Source: Bacillota bacterium
Lineage (GTDB): Bacteria > Bacillota > Clostridia > Christensenellales > UMGS416
Direction: 5' to 3'
Assembly (NCBI GenBank): GCA_023398815.1
Contig: JAEWRW010000028.1
Location: 139,102-203,101, forward strand
DNA: 64,000 nt
Every line of letters starts with the position of its first letter. Within the stretch, counting starts at the first letter, position 1. Position numbers and translations under genes: made by a program. A model generated the notes under the pieces. That model was given only the letters and a program-made list of their open reading frames with translations. It had not been told where the DNA came from and searched no databases. Shown in pieces: positions 4,000 through 60,869 of this stretch.

Positions 4000-4248
4000 A
4001 TGAGCAAGAAGATCCTGATTGTCGTCGCAGTGGTGATGCTGGTGGTGATGTCCTTCGCCGCGTGCCGGCCCAACACCACCACGCCAACCCCCGCTACGAC
4101 CCTGGAAATTACCCTCAGGCCGACCGCGTCGCCCTCACCGGTAGTCTCTCCCTCGTTGAGTCCTGCAGCTACGGTGTCAACGGCAGCGTCAGCCTCTCCG
4201 GCCGGGTCAGCCGCAGCGTCGCCGGGAGCTACCTCGACTACCAAGTAA
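4000..4248 (+). CDS. small S/T/P/A-rich putative lipoprotein
   Basis: This is the inner start of ORF 3916..4248. GAAGGAGG lies at 3978-3985. MSKKILIVVAVVMLVVMSFAAC is a signal peptide with a lipobox-like SFAAC; the remainder is low-complexity T/P/S/A. A hairpin terminator follows. Confidence 0.5.
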   Translation: MSKKILIVVAVVMLVVMSFAACRPNTTTPTPATTLEITLRPTASPSPVVSPSLSPAATVSTAASASPAGSAAASPGATSTTK

Positions 4249-4319: not shown

Positions 4320-6104
4320 TCACTCCTGAGGCAAATCGACGCGAATGGAGAGTTCGCGCAGCTGTTTTTCATCCACGGTGTAGGGCGCGTCGGTCATGAG
4401 GCAGGCCGAACTCTGCACTTTCGGGAAGGCGATGACGTCACGGATGCTGTCCACCCCGGCCAGGGTCATGGTCACACGGTCCAGGCCAAAGGCCAGGCCG
4501 CCATGGGGCGGTGCGCCGTATTTGAAGGCGCTGAGCAGGAACCCAAACTTGGCCTGTGCTTCCTCGGGGGTGTAGTTGAGGGCCTTGAAGATGCGCTCCT
4601 GCAGAGCGCGGTCATGAATGCGGATGCTGCCACCGCCGATCTCGTCACCGTTGCACACCATGTCATAGGCCTTGGCACGCACCGCGGCAAGGTTCGTCTC
4701 CAGCAGGGGCAGGTCTTCATCCATGGGGCTGGTGAATGGATGGTGCTTGGCCACAAAGCAGCCATTTTCCTCATCCACCTCCACAAGCGGGAACTCAGTG
4801 ACCCACAGGAGATTGAACGCCTTGGGGTCGATGAGGTTGAGGCGACGGGCAAGCTCCAACCGCAGCTGACCAAGGGCCGTGTAGGTCACATCGGCCTTGT
4901 CTGCCACGATGAACACGGCGTCGCCCGTCTCCATACCGCAGCGCGCGACGATGGCCTGTTGCTCCTCGGGGGTCAGGAACTTGGCAACCGAGGAGCGGAC
5001 ACCGGCCTCCTCCAGGAAGAACCAGACGAGCCCCTTGGCCTTGTAGGTCTTGACGTGCTCGGTCAGCGCGTCAATCTCCTTTCGGGTGAAGCCACCTGCC
5101 GCCCCCTTGGCGTTGACGGCACAGACCTTGCCGCCGCTCGCCAGCGTATCGGCGAATACCTTGAAGGCTGAGGTGGCCACCGCCTCGCCAATGTCGATGA
5201 TCTTCATGTCAAAGCGGGTGTCCGGCTTGTCGGATCCGTAGGCCTCCATCGCCTCCTGGTAGGTCAAGCGCGGCAGAGGCGTTGGCACCTCATACCCCAC
5301 CGCCTGCCGGAACACGTGGGAAATGAGCCCTTCCATGGTGGCAATGACGTCCTCCTGATCGACAAAGGACATCTCCATATCCACCTGCTGAAACTCCGGC
5401 TGGCGGTTGGCACGCAGGTCCTCATCGCGGAAACACTTAACGATCTGGTAATAGCGGTCAAAGCCGGAGACCATGAGAAGCTGCTTGAAAAGCTGGGGCG
5501 ACTGCGGCAGGGCGAAGAACTTACCCGGCATGACGCGGCTGGGCACCAGGTACTCCCGCGCGCCTTCCGGCGTGCTGCGGGTCAGCATAGGCGTCTCCAG
5601 GTCAATGAAGCCGTTGCCATCCAGAAACTCCCGGAAGGCGTGTGTGATGGTATTCTTCAACAGGATGGGACGCTGCACACTTTCCCGCCGCAGGTCAAGG
5701 TACCGGTGCTTCAGGCGCAGCTGCTCCGAGACACTGTCGCTGTCCAGGCTGAAGGGCGGCGTCTCAGAGACGTTGAGGATTTTGAGCTCGTTCACGGCAA
5801 CCTCAATGGCGCCGGTTTTCATGTCGGTGTTGACGTTGCGCTCATCGCGGGCGACGACCGTACCCCGCAGGGCCACGACGTACTCGCTGCGCAGGGTAGC
5901 GGCTTGGTCAAAGAGCTCGCTGTTGATGGATTGGTCAAAGACGGCCTGCACCTGGCCGGTGCGATCCCGGAGCGAAATGAAGATGAGACTGCCCAGGTCG
6001 CGGCGGCGGTGCACCCAGCCCATCAGCGTCACGCTCTGACCAACACTTGCAAGAGAAAGCTCCGCGCAATAGCCGGAGCGTTTCCAGTTCCCAATCGTTT
6101 CCAT
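4320..6104 (-). CDS. aspS: aspartate--tRNA ligase
   Basis: ORF 4320..6347. The plausible start is METIGNWKRSGYCAELS at 6104, giving 594 aa. The longer ORF overlaps hisS. Class II motifs: FYALPQSPQLFKQLLM-like (FFALPQSPQLFKQLLMVSGFDRYYQIVKCFRDEDLRANRQPEFQQVDMEMSF) and GGGSIRIH...PPHGGLAFGLDR. Confidence 0.93.
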   Translation of the reverse strand: METIGNWKRSGYCAELSLASVGQSVTLMGWVHRRRDLGSLIFISLRDRTGQVQAVFDQSINSELFDQAATLRSEYVVALRGTVVARDERNVNTDMKTGAIEVAVNELKILNVSETPPFSLDSDSVSEQLRLKHRYLDLRRESVQRPILLKNTITHAFREFLDGNGFIDLETPMLTRSTPEGAREYLVPSRVMPGKFFALPQSPQLFKQLLMVSGFDRYYQIVKCFRDEDLRANRQPEFQQVDMEMSFVDQEDVIATMEGLISHVFRQAVGYEVPTPLPRLTYQEAMEAYGSDKPDTRFDMKIIDIGEAVATSAFKVFADTLASGGKVCAVNAKGAAGGFTRKEIDALTEHVKTYKAKGLVWFFLEEAGVRSSVAKFLTPEEQQAIVARCGMETGDAVFIVADKADVTYTALGQLRLELARRLNLIDPKAFNLLWVTEFPLVEVDEENGCFVAKHHPFTSPMDEDLPLLETNLAAVRAKAYDMVCNGDEIGGGSIRIHDRALQERIFKALNYTPEEAQAKFGFLLSAFKYGAPPHGGLAFGLDRVTMTLAGVDSIRDVIAFPKVQSSACLMTDAPYTVDEKQLRELSIRVDLPQE

Positions 6105-6112
6105 ATCGAACT

Positions 6113-7375
6113 TCACCCAATTCCTTTCCATTGAGTCAACAGGGATGCGCGCTCGACGGTGCGCTCCTCGCCGGTCGTCATGTCCTTGAGCTTCCACTGG
6201 CCGGTGGCCAGCTCTTGCTCCCCCACGACGACGACCTGGGGGCAACCCAGCTTGCCGGCGTACTTGAATTGCGCCTTCAGGCTGCGACCCATGTGGTCGC
6301 ACTCGGCAGCCACGCCGTTCTGACGTAGTTCCATGGCCAGCTTCCAAGCCGCCAGGCGGGCTTCGTCGCCCATGGCAGCGATGAAAACTGGCCTTGTATC
6401 AAGGTCGGGTGGTAGTTTCCCCTGTGCTTCCAGCACCATCAGCAGCCGCTCCATCCCCATGCCGAAGCCGATGCCCGGCGTCTTCGGGCCGCCGACTTCC
6501 TCAATGAGGCCGTCGTACCGGCCGCCGCCGCACAGCGTGCTCTGCGCGCCCAGGTCGGCGGAGATGATCTCAAACACGGTCTTGGTGTAATAATCCAGCC
6601 CGCGCACGATGAAGGGATTGACGATGTAGTCGACCCCAGCGTCGGTCAGGCAGGTTTTGAGCGTATCAAAGTGATCGTGGCACTCGTCGCAAAGGTGGTC
6701 AATGCTCTTGGGCGCGTCCTTTGCGATGGCGCGGCACCCCTCCTCCTTGCAGTCCAGCACACGAAGGGGGTTGCGCTCAATGCGCTCCGCACAGGTATGG
6801 CAGAGTCCGTCCTTCTTATCTAGCAGGTAGGCAAGGAGTTCCTCGTGGTATTTCGGCCGGCAGATTGGGCACCCAATGTTGTTCAGGTTGACGGTCAGGT
6901 TGGCCAGCCCCAGCTTCTGCAGGATGGTGCATGCCAGCAAGATGACTTCGGCATCCAGCGTTGCCTGCTGCGCGCCAAAGGCTTCTACCCCAAATTGATG
7001 ATGCTCCCGCAGACGCCCGGCCTGGGGCCTCTCGTAGCGGAAGGTGGGGTTGTACAAATAATAGCACTTCAAAGGTAGCGGCTCGTTGTACAGGCTGTGC
7101 TCCACAAAGGCGCGGGCGACACCAGCGGTGCCCTCGGGCTTCAGCGTGATGCTGCGGCCACCCTTGTCCTCAAAGGTGTACATCTCCTTCTGCACGATGT
7201 CGGTGGTGTTGCCCACGCTGCGCAGGAAGAGCTCCGTATGCTCAAAGGTGGGGATGCGGATCTCGCGGTACCCGAAGGCCGCACAGGCCTCCCGGATGAC
7301 GCGTTCCATATACTGCCATTTGGCACTTTCGCCCGGCAGAATGTCCTTGGTTCCCTTTGGCGCGGTCGTCAGCAT
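6113..7375 (-). CDS. hisS: histidine--tRNA ligase
   Basis: ORF 6113..7411. The start is chosen at 7375 (MLTTAPKGTKDILPGE), with GGAGGA 6 nt upstream. The 12 extra ORF codons would overlap the -10 box. HisRS motifs: YYLYNPTFRYERPQAGRLREHHQFGVE and GGGRYDGL. Confidence 0.93.
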   Translation of the reverse strand: MLTTAPKGTKDILPGESAKWQYMERVIREACAAFGYREIRIPTFEHTELFLRSVGNTTDIVQKEMYTFEDKGGRSITLKPEGTAGVARAFVEHSLYNEPLPLKCYYLYNPTFRYERPQAGRLREHHQFGVEAFGAQQATLDAEVILLACTILQKLGLANLTVNLNNIGCPICRPKYHEELLAYLLDKKDGLCHTCAERIERNPLRVLDCKEEGCRAIAKDAPKSIDHLCDECHDHFDTLKTCLTDAGVDYIVNPFIVRGLDYYTKTVFEIISADLGAQSTLCGGGRYDGLIEEVGGPKTPGIGFGMGMERLLMVLEAQGKLPPDLDTRPVFIAAMGDEARLAAWKLAMELRQNGVAAECDHMGRSLKAQFKYAGKLGCPQVVVVGEQELATGQWKLKDMTTGEERTVERASLLTQWKGIG

Positions 7376-7402
7376 GTGCGTTCCTCCGTCAATCGTCCCA
7401 TT

Positions 7403-7431
7403 ATTATACAAGCCGGCCGTGGGGAAGTCAA
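7403..7431 (-). promoter_or_regulatory. sigma-A type promoter of hisS-aspS (TTGACT-17-TATAAT)
   Basis: Minus strand reads TTGACT (7431-7426), a 17-nt spacer and TATAAT (7408-7403). The -10 box is about 27 nt upstream of the hisS ATG and immediately downstream of a U-tailed hairpin. Confidence 0.7.
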
Positions 7432-7443
7432 CGAACGGCGGCC

Positions 7444-7477
7444 ATAGAAAAGGGCGGCCACACCCCTGTGACCGCCC
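7444..7477 (-). terminator. intrinsic terminator hairpin (copy 1 of an identical 28-nt repeat)
   Basis: Minus strand reads GGGCGGTCAC-AGGGGT-GTGGCCGCCC (10-bp stem with one G-U pair), followed by TTTTCTAT. The 28-mer AAGGGCGGCCACACCCCTGTGACCGCCC (plus strand, 7450-7477) recurs identically at 7750-7777. Confidence 0.7.
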
Positions 7478-7749
7478 TCAGGCTGTCGACAAAGTCGACA
7501 GCCTTTCGCGTCTGCCGCTGTGGCGACAGCCGCGATACAAACTGCTTGTTCTCGTTATGGCCAGATCGGTCGCCGCACATGTCGCCGCCCGATCACAAAT
7601 TGCAGCTTTCATGCGGGTTTCTAAGGATACGTTGCGCCTTCGGGCGGAGTTTTTCCTTCTGCTCGCGCTGACCCCGACTTTCCTGCCGCCGAATGAATCG
7701 GCGGCAGGTTCATCTCCCTTTGCCTGTTCTAGGGGGTTATAGACACTCT
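7478..7749 (-). other. unassigned ORF-less, hairpin-dense non-coding segment (candidate sRNA or structured 3' UTR)
   Basis: No ORF of 60 aa or more on the minus strand. Perfect hairpins: CCTGCCGCCGA-TTCAT-TCGGCGGCAGG (7682-7708) and GGCTGTCGAC-TTT-GTCGACAGCC (7481-7503); GATCGG...CCGATC also encloses a GTCGCCGC direct repeat. The segment is bounded by the two identical hairpins. I could not match it to any RNA family by eye. Confidence 0.3.
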
Positions 7750-7777
7750 AAGGGCGGCCACACCCCTGTGACCGCCC
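7750..7777 (-). terminator. hairpin (copy 2 of the identical 28-nt repeat) just downstream of the TIM-barrel gene stop; weak U-tract
   Basis: Same 28-mer as 7450-7477, located 15 nt after the stop at 7792. On the minus strand it is followed by TTAGAGTG (no real U-run), so termination may be partial. Confidence 0.45.
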
Positions 7778-7791
7778 CCACATTTTCTTGC

Positions 7792-8655
7792 TTACAGCGC
7801 TTCCACGAACCGCTTGAGGTTCTTGTATCCCAGCGTGATGCCCACGATCGGATCCTCGATGCCCTCAAACTCTAACGACACGGTGCCGCTGTAACCGGCA
7901 CGCTTCAGGATGGCCAGGCACTGGGGTACCGGAATGACGCCGTGACCCACGACGGCCCCGCGGACGTAGTTGCCGGCACGGGTGGTGAACCATCCCTCGC
8001 CGGGGTTCGGCTCTGTGCCGGGCTTGTAGTGGAAGTCCTTGGCGTGGACGTGGAAGGCATAAGGCGCGGCGATGCCAACGGCCTTGGCCGAGTCTTCATC
8101 GGCGCAGATGAAGTTGCCCATGTCCACCAGCCAGCCGAAGTTCGGGTGGTTGACGGCGTTCATCAACTTCTCTACCCGGTCGCTGTCCTGGGCGAAGAAA
8201 CCGTGATTCTCCACCATGGTGCGGATGCCAAATGTCGCGGCGATCTCGGTGACGGCGCGGCAGCCCTCCGCCAGAGTGGGCAGCACGCGGTCAAAGCTCC
8301 GACCGGCAATGGCGGCCCCTCCCCAGGTGGCGTCGTGGCGCATGCCCGGCGCACCCATCAGGCGCGCAGCCTGGATTTCACCCTTGAGCGCCTCCACCTG
8401 ACCCTTGACTCCCTGGGGGTGGTTGAGGAAATCAGCGGCGATGGTATAGTTGCCCACATCGATGCCAACGCGGGCGGCCTCTTCCTTCACCTTCGGGGCG
8501 AAGGTCAAGGGTGTCTCCCCCTCCGGCAGCACGAAGGTGGAGAACTCGATGACATCAAAGCCGATCTCCTTGGCCTTGGCGATGACGTCGAGCTGGCTCA
8601 TTTTGCCGGCCCGAACCAGGTTGATGAAGCTGTAGGAACTGACGCCGATTTTCAT
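7792..8655 (-). CDS. sugar phosphate isomerase/epimerase (xylose isomerase-like TIM barrel)
   Basis: ORF 7792..8655, 287 aa: MKIGVSSYSF...IGFDVIEFS...VENHGFFAQ...HVHAKDF...LEFEG, the typical AP-endonuclease-2/xylose-isomerase-like TIM pattern. Confidence 0.8.
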   Translation of the reverse strand: MKIGVSSYSFINLVRAGKMSQLDVIAKAKEIGFDVIEFSTFVLPEGETPLTFAPKVKEEAARVGIDVGNYTIAADFLNHPQGVKGQVEALKGEIQAARLMGAPGMRHDATWGGAAIAGRSFDRVLPTLAEGCRAVTEIAATFGIRTMVENHGFFAQDSDRVEKLMNAVNHPNFGWLVDMGNFICADEDSAKAVGIAAPYAFHVHAKDFHYKPGTEPNPGEGWFTTRAGNYVRGAVVGHGVIPVPQCLAILKRAGYSGTVSLEFEGIEDPIVGITLGYKNLKRFVEAL

Positions 8656-8677: not shown

Positions 8678-10204
8678 TTAGAGAAGGGCCGCAGTGCGCG
8701 CGAAGCTGGGCTTCAGCGCGGCATACAGCTCCTGATAAACCGGGTAGAAACGCTGGTAGACGGCGGCGCTGGCGGCTTCCGGCCCTTGGCGGCGTACGGT
8801 GCGGATGGTGGCGTCGCAAGCCTCGGGCACGGTAGCGTAGAGCCCCGCGCCTACGCCTGCCAGCAACGCCACGCCCAGGGCCGGGCCTTCGCTGGAGTTG
8901 GTGGTCACGATGTCTGTGCCAAACATGTCGGCCTGAATCTGCCGCCACAGGGGGCTGCGCCCGCCGCCGCCGGAGGCACGCACCTCCCCCGCCTCCACGC
9001 CCATCTCCCGGATGATTGAGAGGCAATCGAGCAGGCTGTAGGATACGCCCTCCAGTACGGCACGGATCATCTCCTGCCGGCGGTGACGCGCCGTCAAGCC
9101 GAAGAACACGCCCTTGGCATTGGGGTCAAGGTGGGGCGTGCGCTCACCCATCAGGTAGGGCAGATATAGGAGACCGTCACACCCAGCTTTCGCCTGGGCG
9201 GCCTCCTGCCCCATCAGCTCGTAGGGGTCGACGCCCATCCGCTCGGCCAGGGTGCGCTCCATGGCTCCGAACTCGTTGCGGAACCACTGCAGCGACAGGC
9301 CGGCCCCCTGGGTCACGCCCATGATGTGCCAAGCACCCGGCACCGCGTGGCAGAAGGTGTGAACCCGGCCCTTGGGGTCGATGGAGACGGTATCGGCATG
9401 GGCAAACACCACGCCGGACGTGCCGATGGTGGAGGAAATGACGCCGGCGCGCACGATGCCGTTGCCCACCGCGCCAGCCGCCTGGTCACCGCCGCCGCCT
9501 ACGACCGGGAGACCTTCCCACAGGCCGGTCAATTCCGCCGCCTGACGTTTCAGCTTGCCGGAGACCTCGCAGCTCTCATAGACGTGCGGCAGCCACTCCA
9601 TGGGAATGCCGAGTTTCTCCAGCACCTCCTGGGACCAACGGCGGCGCGGCACATCCAGAAACTGCATGCCGCTGGCGTCCGACACCTCGGTGGCGTACTC
9701 GCCGGTCAGAAGCAGCCGTACATAATCCTTGGGCAGCAGGATGTGGCGTGTTTTCTCAAAAATCTCCGGCTGGTGGTTCTTCACCCACACGACCTTGGAG
9801 GCGGTGAAGCCCGTGAGCGCCGGGTTGGCGGTGATCTCTATGAGCCGGGCAGCGCCGACCTTGGCGGTGATCTCGTCACACTCGGCTTGGGTACGCTGGT
9901 CGCACCAGATGATCGCCGGGTGCAACACGTTGTTGCTGCCATCCAGCAGCACCATGCCATGCATCTGGCCGGAAAGGCCAAGGCCCTTGATGTCCCGCGG
10001 GTTCACGCCGCTTTTACGCACGACCTCGGCTATGCTGCCGGCCGACGCGCGCCACCAATCCTCGGGGTTCTGCTCCGCCCAGCCAACCTGCGGCTGGCTC
10101 AGCGGATATTCCCAAGTGGCCGACGCCACGGTATTGCCCTGCTCGTCAAAGAGCACGGTTTTGGTGCCCGATGTGCCGATGTCTACGCCCAGAAGGTATG
10201 CCAT
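8678..10204 (-). CDS. xylB: FGGY-family carbohydrate kinase, xylulokinase-like
   Basis: ORF 8678..10255. The start is at 10204, with AGGAGG upstream: MAYLLGVDIGTSGTKTVLFDEQG...WAEQNPEDWW...GGGDQAAGAVGNG...GGGGRSPLWRQIQADMFG. Confidence 0.85.
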   Translation of the reverse strand: MAYLLGVDIGTSGTKTVLFDEQGNTVASATWEYPLSQPQVGWAEQNPEDWWRASAGSIAEVVRKSGVNPRDIKGLGLSGQMHGMVLLDGSNNVLHPAIIWCDQRTQAECDEITAKVGAARLIEITANPALTGFTASKVVWVKNHQPEIFEKTRHILLPKDYVRLLLTGEYATEVSDASGMQFLDVPRRRWSQEVLEKLGIPMEWLPHVYESCEVSGKLKRQAAELTGLWEGLPVVGGGGDQAAGAVGNGIVRAGVISSTIGTSGVVFAHADTVSIDPKGRVHTFCHAVPGAWHIMGVTQGAGLSLQWFRNEFGAMERTLAERMGVDPYELMGQEAAQAKAGCDGLLYLPYLMGERTPHLDPNAKGVFFGLTARHRRQEMIRAVLEGVSYSLLDCLSIIREMGVEAGEVRASGGGGRSPLWRQIQADMFGTDIVTTNSSEGPALGVALLAGVGAGLYATVPEACDATIRTVRRQGPEAASAAVYQRFYPVYQELYAALKPSFARTAALL

Positions 10205-10238
10205 GTGGTTCCTCCTACTTTCCTTAAACAAAAGTGCT

Positions 10239-10676
10239 CTAGTCCATTTCGACAACGGTGATGCAATTCCTTTTTAGAAGTGCGGCCGTCACGCCGTCGC
10301 CGGGGCGCAGCCCACCGGCAAACGACCCATCGTGGATGGTGCCCACGCCGCAGGACGGGCTGCGGCTCTTCAGCCACACCTCTGTGGCGCCATGATGATG
10401 GCAGAGCTCCAACACCTTCTGCGCACCCAGCAGGAACGCTTCGGTCACGTCCTGCCCGGTGCGGCTGAGCACACGGGCACGGCCATCCAGCACATCGGCC
10501 CCGTCACCGCCCACAATCTCCGACGGCTCGCGCGGGATGGGAAGGCCACCCAGACACTCCGGGCAGATGAGCACATGGGGCACACCGTTCAGGCGTTGCC
10601 GCGCGGCGACGCTTTCCTTGCTCTTGCCGTCGTAGCGGACGGGTTTGCCCAGGAGGCAGGCACTGACCAGAATCAT
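10239..10676 (-). CDS. DUF523 family protein (TudS-like)
   Basis: ORF 10239..10676: MILVSACLLGKPVRYDGKSK...CPECLGGLPIPREP...SPSCG. Its RBS, GAGGAGG, overlaps the mutS2 stop. Confidence 0.7.
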   Translation of the reverse strand: MILVSACLLGKPVRYDGKSKESVAARQRLNGVPHVLICPECLGGLPIPREPSEIVGGDGADVLDGRARVLSRTGQDVTEAFLLGAQKVLELCHHHGATEVWLKSRSPSCGVGTIHDGSFAGGLRPGDGVTAALLKRNCITVVEMD

Positions 10677-17042: not shown

Positions 17043-17271
17043 AAAAAGCCTTCGCCCCAGCATGGGACGAAGGCATCGCGGTACCACCCAATTTGCCCGC
17101 CAAAGCGAGCCACTCAACGGCGATAACGGGGCCACCGTCCACGCCTACTCCAAGTTCAGCGCGACACTCCCAAGCGAACTTCCCCCACTTCCACCGCAAT
17201 GGCGCTTGCAGCCGGTGACGCCGTCTCTCTTACCGGGGATGGGCAGGGTACTCCTCTTGTTCCTCGTGTTT
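17043..17271 (-). promoter_or_regulatory. T-box riboswitch leader (Phe, UUC specifier) with terminator
   Basis: Minus strand: canonical T-box AAATTGGGTGGTACCGCG (17094-17077); terminator GCCTTCGTCCCATGCTGGGGCGAAGGC (17074-17048) plus TTTTT; stem I elements GGTAAGAGAGACGG and GCGGTGGAAG; specifier loop GAAG-UUC-G, with UUC at 17179-17177 followed by a purine. Confidence 0.9.
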
Positions 17272-17277
17272 CGTTTT

Positions 17278-60670: not shown

Positions 60671-60825
60671 CTGTTCCTTCACCTGAGAGATTCTTCCCGA
60701 AGGAATTGCCCCGTTGGTGCCCATGTGGGCTTTCCAGAGATGTGTCGTGGCACGGTCCGGTTTGCCTGAGAGGTTCTGCGCGATTGCTCCTTCGGCGCCG
60801 GCGCGTGGCCGGTCTCTCCCATGCC
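60671..60825 (-). promoter_or_regulatory. tandem glycine riboswitch (two aptamers)
   Basis: Minus strand. Aptamer 1: GGGAGAGACCGGCC...GCGCCGAAGGAGCAA...CTCTCAGGCAAACCGGAC. Aptamer 2: CTCTGGAAAGCCCACATGGGCACCAACGGGGCAA...TCTCTCAGGTGAAGGAACAG. It sits directly upstream of gcvT, the classic context. Confidence 0.88.
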
Positions 60826-60869
60826 AGTCATCCACAACGGATTAAGCCTACCCGATGTGGGGCCATCTG

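Follow-up and report, generated by a model that had tools for sequence, protein, structure and literature searches.

A probable MITE-like insertion that duplicated a terminator stem-loop in a GC-rich Clostridia lineage

Introduction

Among the mobile elements of bacteria, two members of the IS30 family duplicate an entire inverted-repeat target upon insertion, namely IS1630 of Mycoplasma fermentans, whose target duplications, unusually long, measure 16–26 bp (PMC2853133, PMC3317919), and ISMhom-1 of M. hominis (PMC7648426). Both are autonomous elements of 1.2–1.4 kb that carry a transposase gene and 27-bp terminal inverted repeats and reside in AT-rich Mollicutes. IS1272, of the IS1182 family, also has structure-dependent targets, which are often stem-loops located just downstream of genes, and the model published for it includes a branch (pathway b) in which the whole stem-loop is duplicated once the 3′ ends of the transposon attack a cruciform at its 5′ feet (PMC5678879). 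At a smaller scale, bacterial MITEs are small, ORF-less, dispersed and strongly folding elements that are mostly intergenic and often found in 3′UTRs (PMC10969869, PMC3184786, PMC7049690).

Here, we analyzed a locus of an uncultured Clostridia lineage with 63% GC, in a 64-kb window (the whole stretch of DNA under study), where two identical hairpins bracket an ORF-less segment between a TIM-barrel gene and hisS. The segment is very probably a copy of a ~270-bp non-autonomous, MITE-like element that inserted at the terminator of the TIM-barrel gene and duplicated its stem-loop. The element resembles IS1630 and ISMhom-1 in inserting at stem-loop, terminator-like targets of variable sequence, a resemblance of function only, and differs from them in its length of 270 bp, its lack of an ORF, its possible, weak 10-bp terminal repeat, its duplications of 26–31 bp and its GC-rich host. 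IS1272 replaces its target stem-loop without duplicating it, whereas here the stem-loop is kept on both sides, and replacement of the IS1182-family, IS1272-like type was rejected on that ground. The element shares the traits of MITEs such as Correia/NEMIS, RUP, BOX, bcr1 and QMITE, and like them may alter the expression of its neighbors; typical MITEs, however, possess clear terminal inverted repeats and duplications of 2–10 bp, while this one has marginal repeats at best and duplicates a complete terminator hairpin of 26–31 bp. As in REP, REPIN and BIME sequences, the palindromes are GC-rich, extragenic and downstream of genes, but in REP the palindrome is itself the dispersed repeat, whereas here the palindrome is unique to its locus and the sequence between its copies is dispersed. 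Finally, as in CRISPR integration by Cas1-Cas2, the insertion is flanked by a duplicated palindrome of ~28–31 bp; in contrast to CRISPR, the insert measures 270 bp rather than 30–40 bp, forms a single unit, has no cas genes and is flanked by a different repeat at each locus. We found no prior description of this element family.

Results

Two identical hairpins bracket the segment

The genes at the locus (FGGY kinase, the TIM-barrel gene, hisS and aspS) are all encoded on the minus strand (Table 1). An exact scan of the window agreed with an earlier note on this DNA in that a 28-mer, AAGGGCGGCCACACCCCTGTGACCGCCC, is present in exactly two copies on the plus strand, at 7450–7477 and 7750–7777, in the same orientation and 300 bp apart from start to start. 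No third match was found in the window even at three mismatches, with 0 expected by chance. The two copies had been described as lacking flanking similarity, which is mostly correct but overlooks that the repeat lengthens to 31 nt if one mismatch is allowed and that an 11-nt partial copy of the hairpin arm lies close by. On the minus strand, each copy folds into a hairpin with a GGGG loop, as had been noticed, although the stem comprises 11–12 bp with one G·U pair and not the 10 bp given previously. The hairpin next to the TIM-barrel gene (copy 1, GGGCGGUCACA-GGGG-UGUGGCCGCCC) begins 14 nt past the stop codon and is followed by UUAGAG, and thus indeed has no U-tract. Read along the minus strand, the TIM-barrel stop and hairpin copy 1 are followed by the 272 nt, by hairpin copy 2 and by the hisS promoter, and both the UUUUCU tail of copy 2 and the promoter directly after it (7431–7403) were seen where the earlier note had placed them. 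This hisS-side copy is probably the working terminator. The partial arm differs from its counterpart in the related contig L086 (HisS 94% identical) at 3 of its 11 bases and therefore evolves fast; it could be what is left of an older terminator, or the footprint of an earlier insertion and excision.

A GGAGG ribosome-binding site precedes hisS, and its promoter, CGTTGAC-17-TGTATAAT, is conserved in four relatives that all lack the element (L087, L088, L153 and L154), so the insertion leaves the hisS promoter undisturbed. The segment is not a hisS leader, since this conserved promoter follows it downstream, and a degenerate T-box leader for hisS was rejected for the same reason. As an observation in its own right, hisS-aspS in this lineage has no T-box leader; instead, it has a short 5′UTR and a strongly conserved promoter, CGTTGAC-17-(TG)TATAAT, which is common to relatives with 72–87% HisS identity. 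In L086, the public HisS call (protein P0001) carries a false 68-residue N-terminal extension (4001–4204) that spans the promoter and some of the element.

The segment has no credible ORF and no known RNA family

The claim that the 272 nt hold no credible ORF stood up to analysis: the interior contains merely short frames devoid of Shine-Dalgarno sequences, and no Pfam match was obtained in six frames. In the 30-codon frame, the substitutions relative to L086 are non-synonymous yet keep the hairpin. A small protein was rejected on these three grounds. The several perfect hairpins reported inside the segment were likewise confirmed and include two perfect 11-bp ones, at 7480–7504 and 7682–7708; four or five local hairpins are conserved among copies of the element.

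A permissive Rfam search of positions 6800–8400 (E up to 10) returned noise, with 11–17 bits against gathering scores of 48–221, while a T-box and a glycine riboswitch were recovered elsewhere in the window with the same library. The T-box leader is located at 17060–17273 (minus strand, 119 bits) and the glycine riboswitch aptamer at 60743–60831 (minus strand, 63 bits), both over their Rfam gathering scores. At the locus itself, known RNA families (T-box, SRP, 6S, RNase P, tmRNA, riboswitches and IS-associated RNAs) were rejected, as none gave a match near its gathering score, which accords with the earlier note for the first five of these.

Table 1. Features of the locus, in window coordinates.
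Feature	Position	Strand	Remarks
Body of the putative mobile element, ORF-less, hairpin-rich	7478–7749		272 nt; 274 nt if AA 7750–7751 is included
Left terminus TCAGGCTGTC	7478–7487	+	Conserved in L086, L156 copy 2 and L157
Right terminus GACACTCT(AA)	7742–7751	+	From the alignment of copies; other copies end CTCTGA
Terminal perfect 11-bp hairpin AGGCTGTCGAC-AAA-GTCGACAGCCT	7480–7504		Conserved in L086, L156 copy 2 and L157
Internal hairpin, 5+7 bp	7507–7534		178-nt insertion in the apical part in L157
Internal hairpin GATCGG...CCGATC	7564–7594		Most conserved core; 265-nt insertion in the apex in L157
Internal perfect 11-bp hairpin CCTGCCGCCGA-ATGAA-TCGGCGGCAGG	7682–7708		Pairing kept in four copies
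Target-site duplication, TIM-barrel-stop side	7750–7777	-	Exact 28-nt repeat and fold; stem-loop 7752–7777
Target-site duplication, hisS side	7450–7477	-	Stem-loop 7452–7477; original U-tract UUUUCU 7446–7451
Partial third copy of the hairpin arm, AACGGCGGCCA, 11 nt	7434–7444		16 nt from the 7450–7477 copy
FGGY kinase	8678–10255	-	
Xylose-isomerase-like TIM-barrel gene, its terminator the target	7792–8655	-	Pfam PF01261, E = 2.9e-28
hisS (histidyl-tRNA synthetase), downstream neighbor	6113–7375	-	Pfam PF13393 and PF03129; ATG at 7375
hisS promoter TTGACT-17-TATAAT, 11/12 match, host sequence	7403–7431	-	Kept in element-free relatives

The interior recurs at unrelated sites

DNA searches with the interior revealed no other copy in the window and none in the hisS loci of 80 GTDB relatives; among GTDB species representatives, mostly Christensenellales-like MAGs, the best HisS identity was 62–66%. 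The exact interior pattern had no match in a metagenome contig collection, four patterns had none in IMG/VR save one chance palindrome, and neither BLAST against plasmids and phages nor a word-indexed protein search with the minus-frame translation yielded a match. The copies were found by phmmer, for which the long stop-free plus-strand frame across the element served as the query against 1.84 billion representative proteins. Three spurious ORFs of 227–233 aa aligned across 50–78 residues; two of them could be placed on contigs, L156 and L157, and the third is P0242.

L156, which originates from the same sample as L001, carries two copies. Copy 1 (5031–5283) is truncated and 91% identical by BLAST to window 7503–7757, and it lacks the 7480–7504 hairpin. 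Copy 2 (8917–9186) is intact, with positions 8919–9183 being 87% identical by BLAST to window 7480–7749. The gene context of both is unrelated to that of the window and includes TetR, HSP20 and esterase genes. A tyrosine integrase gene (387–1571; Phage_int_SAM_3 and Phage_integrase) is located ~3.5 kb from the truncated copy and shows no link to the element. In L157, the conserved blocks of the element are broken up by three large insertions. Pairwise identity among all copies ranges between 80 and 94%, with different copies being 85–92% and orthologs 94% identical. In total, no fewer than five genomic sites carry the element, and their contigs come from several metagenome samples; its copies are in the window and the L086 ortholog, in L156 (two), in L157 and on the contig of P0242. 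In the short-read (Logan) contigs of sample SRR13358363, the TIM-barrel-side contig ends at window position 7617 and the hisS-side contig begins at 7504, leaving a 112-nt conserved core (7505–7616) unassembled between them; a gap inside the element is as expected at a multi-copy repeat.

Aligning the copies yielded the consensus ends (T)CAGGCTGTCGACAAAGTCGACAGCC... to ...GTTCTAGGGGTTATAGACACTCTGA, with the end motifs TCAGGCTGTCGACAAAG... and ...ATAGACACTCTGA. When TCAGGCTGTC is compared with TTAGAGTGTC, 8 of 12 anchored positions match (P about 0.006), and a 1-nt deletion in L086 blurs this match; the ends of the element may at best form a short imperfect terminal inverted repeat. No transposase was seen near any copy, and no full-length parent element with the same ends was found in the window or in ~1.1 Mb of other loci.

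The L157 contig displayed further repeats. The three insertions in its element copy (4585–4762, 4837–5101 and 5215–5536) are each located in the apical part of one element hairpin and leave these hairpins unduplicated. Inverted and direct repeats are common to the first and third, the latter of which also has a three-unit 78-nt tandem repeat; they could be either nested hairpin-preferring repeats or variable stem extensions. Elsewhere on the same contig, a 1.3-kb repeat-filled intergenic stretch (6987–8257) includes a three-unit 115-nt tandem repeat and a ~230-nt duplicated unit, ~417 bp apart, whose copies are 81–100% identical by block and end in a perfect hairpin; motifs of this stretch recall the element core (GCCGCGCATGTCGCCG). 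A 39-nt repeat 417 bp apart in L157 was considered as a hairpin-flanked insertion and rejected, since it belongs to the longer duplicated unit and is not a target duplication.

Flanking hairpins vary among the copies

The intact L156 copy is also flanked by a direct repeat, CGGCAGAG[G/A]GCGATTGGCT[C/T]TCTGCCGGTTT, of 31 nt and 299 bp from start to start. This repeat consists of a hairpin with a 13-bp stem followed by a T-run and is positioned 30 nt downstream of the esterase gene. The flanking sequences of the two intact copies are unlike, reading GGGCGGCCACA... in the window and CGGCAGAGGGCG... in L156, and the element lies in opposite orientations relative to the terminator U-tract at the two sites. 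The truncated L156 copy abuts, at its intact end, a third and different perfect hairpin of 15 bp, and the L157 copy possesses a hairpin at this same end; both of these copies are one-sided. Since each copy has flanking repeats of its own, in the form of local terminator-like hairpins, these repeats derive from the target and not from the element. The hairpin repeats are target-site duplications that cover essentially the whole stem-loop, with a length of 26–31 bp and a target preference that are drawn from two copies with both flanks plus two one-sided ones.

The earlier note had also considered that the 28-mer could be a common REP or terminator sequence. This was not the case, as the 28-mer was not found in IMG/VR and is not dispersed in the window or in metagenomes, while the sequence between its copies is dispersed. 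A search of metagenomes for the hairpin pattern (the stem with any 3–5 nt loop) gave 62 loci, ~48 of which represent one unrelated human-gut locus, and the others are unrelated terminators with differing loops and flanks.

A relative without the element retains a single terminator

The contigs of the same species (L001–L005) show no difference across the region, and L086 contains the segment together with both hairpins. L087 (HisS 87% identical) has the same order of FGGY kinase, TIM-barrel gene and hisS, and its 127-nt spacer between the latter two contains one terminator hairpin, directly followed by the conserved promoter, and no element. In their outer halves, the two window hairpins are similar to the base of this terminator (GGGGGCGG...GGCCGTCC-TTTTC): the 5′ base GGGGGCGG of the 7750–7777 hairpin aligns with the 5′ arm of the L087 terminator, and the 3′ arm and U-tract of the 7450–7477 copy resemble its end, CCGTCCTTTTC. 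This resemblance is what an insertion duplicating an ancestral terminator predicts, with L087 being the only empty site at hand, diverged, and alike in its terminator at the stem base only. The element is absent as well from more distant relatives (L088 and L152–L155, with HisS or TIM-barrel 72–76% identical), all of which have short spacers.

These observations favor one of the possibilities raised in the earlier note, an inserted repeat-flanked element, since the same 270 nt occur elsewhere with their own duplicated hairpins and are missing from the L087 site. In support of a MITE, the element was found to be small and ORF-less, dispersed in unrelated contexts and bordered by a flank duplication that varies by copy.

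Conservation and structure of the element

The window and L086 copies of the element are separated by 17 differences in 272 positions (6.2%), and the divergence drops to 2.5% within 7478–7597. By comparison, the flanking genes diverge by 21–27% at third codon positions (binomial P about 1e-11), and the adjoining 18-nt spacer by 22%. So low a divergence is not what a neutral fixed insertion would lead one to expect, and it reflects either constraint or recent arrival. In addition, at one variable stem position the two hairpin copies of a genome agree with each other, but the window and L086 do not, which calls for gene conversion, parallel change or independent insertion. Three histories are possible: the element is constrained (exapted) and its repeats underwent gene conversion; it arrived after the split, through independent insertions into the same terminator; or it spread between the lineages via recombination.

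The first of these histories bears on the alternative that the element is, or has become, a functional structured RNA, kept by selection as a read-through 3′UTR on the TIM-barrel mRNA or as an sRNA arising from that 3′UTR; its mobile features would then tell only of its origin. We consider this improbable. In its favor, besides the low divergence from L086, the 351-nt fold is very stable compared with shuffled sequences (z = -7.3 on the minus strand and -6.4 on the plus strand), and read-through is plausible past an upstream hairpin without a U-tract. Furthermore, on the minus strand of the window, all of the 11 base pairs of the 7682–7708 hairpin persist in four copies, with one compensatory change (G-C to C-G) and two wobble changes among copies, both of which become C·A mismatches on the plus strand. 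These three substitutions, few as they are, hint at a strand-specific structure, in RNA or in single-stranded DNA. In contrast, the substitutions separating the window from L086, when tested by permutation for preservation of the structure, gave a marginal result (P 0.03–0.08) that was equally good for both strands, and recent spread fits the figures of 85–92% identity among copies and 94% among orthologs as well as constraint does. No promoter was found inside the element, the Rfam search gave no match, and the copies occur in unrelated surroundings and, with respect to the host terminators, in both orientations. Given the missing promoter, the negative Rfam search and the two orientations, an independent small RNA, which the earlier note had put forward, finds no support as the primary reading, and the read-through 3′UTR named beside it is tenable as a possible side effect of the lost U-tract but not as the main explanation. 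The presence of the same element at other hairpins in related bacteria points to a mobile repeat and not to a dedicated small-RNA gene, and the 3′UTR and sRNA readings are at most secondary consequences.

Discussion

Taken as an insertion, the locus has a simple history: the two identical hairpins lie 300 bp apart because the insertion duplicated the whole terminator stem-loop. Before that event, the site between the TIM-barrel gene and hisS would have read TG-GGGGCGGTCACAGGGGTGTGGCCGCCC-TTTTCT, a single terminator. A candidate transposase supplied in trans would recognize the stem-loop or cruciform target, the ends of the element would be joined to the stem at its two feet or close to them, and the repair of the gaps would then copy the stem-loop onto both sides, a mechanism that was proposed for IS1630 and corresponds to pathway b of the IS1272 model. 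The simplest reading would be that a DDE transposase choosing its target by structure mobilizes this MITE. With the U-tract gone from the gene-proximal hairpin, the TIM-barrel transcript would probably read ~300 nt further and end at the distal hairpin copy with UUUUCU, and the hisS promoter would stay insulated.

A bolder reading, to which we assign a slim chance, portrays an ORF-less structured family that is under purifying selection and homes to terminators via a structure-measuring integrase that copies a ~30-bp palindrome on both sides. With similarly small probability, such an integrase would constitute a natural analogue of CRISPR-repeat duplication, or an RNA- or structure-guided mechanism, as opposed to a decaying MITE left by a DDE element.

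A specific Cas1-like or casposase-like integrase that measures ~30 bp across a palindromic target, in place of a DDE transposase, appears very improbable. The duplicated target is palindromic and, at 26–31 bp, of CRISPR-repeat size, and the two repeat spacings, 300 and 299 bp, are almost equal. Nevertheless, no cas1 or candidate integrase was seen near any copy, and the 270-bp insert far exceeds the length of a spacer. Casposons generate duplications of 14–15 bp. DDE transposition, moreover, offers precedent for exactly such an outcome (PMC2853133, PMC5678879).

The wholly different flanks of the copies, together with their occurrence in both orientations, exclude element-borne att sites, terminal hairpins of the IS200/IS605 type and an orientation-dependent 3′UTR module. 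Accordingly, we attach next to no credence to a miniature integrative element that relies on a site-specific recombinase for its movement, in which the 28-mers would be attL and attR cores carried by the element, even though direct repeats of 28–31 bp fall into the size range of att cores and an integrase gene lies ~3.5 kb from one of the L156 copies. An IS200/IS605-type PATE or a REP/REPIN element, with the hairpins as its own subterminal recognition hairpins, has equally little to commend it: two hairpins in the same orientation near the ends of an ORF-less stretch of ~300 nt would suit it, but hairpins owned by the element should be conserved among copies and the flanking ones are not, no further copy of the 28-mer turned up in the rest of the window or in the collections scanned, and IS605-associated RNAs gave no Rfam match. 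A purely local event without mobility, be it replication slippage or a tandem duplication at the terminator, could draw on the partial third arm copy 16 nt away (7434–7444) but has a negligible probability given that the 270-nt interior is present at other loci on other contigs.

The element is probably a MITE with an uncommon yet documented mode of integration, and an odd locus is thereby explained without a new RNA gene. For annotation, such elements mimic repeat-spacer-repeat or sRNA signatures, cause false N-terminal extensions as in P0001 and break short-read assemblies. The very short list of terminator-stem-loop-duplicating elements, so far mainly from the IS30 family in Mycoplasma, gains a miniature, non-autonomous case from GC-rich Clostridia. 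Landing on a terminator amounts to a safe-harbor strategy, as every gene stays intact and a functional terminator is re-formed beyond the insert. Even so, 3′ ends are rewired, and here the TIM-barrel mRNA probably gains a structured 3′UTR of 300 nt; insertions in 3′UTRs are known to change expression (PMC7049690).
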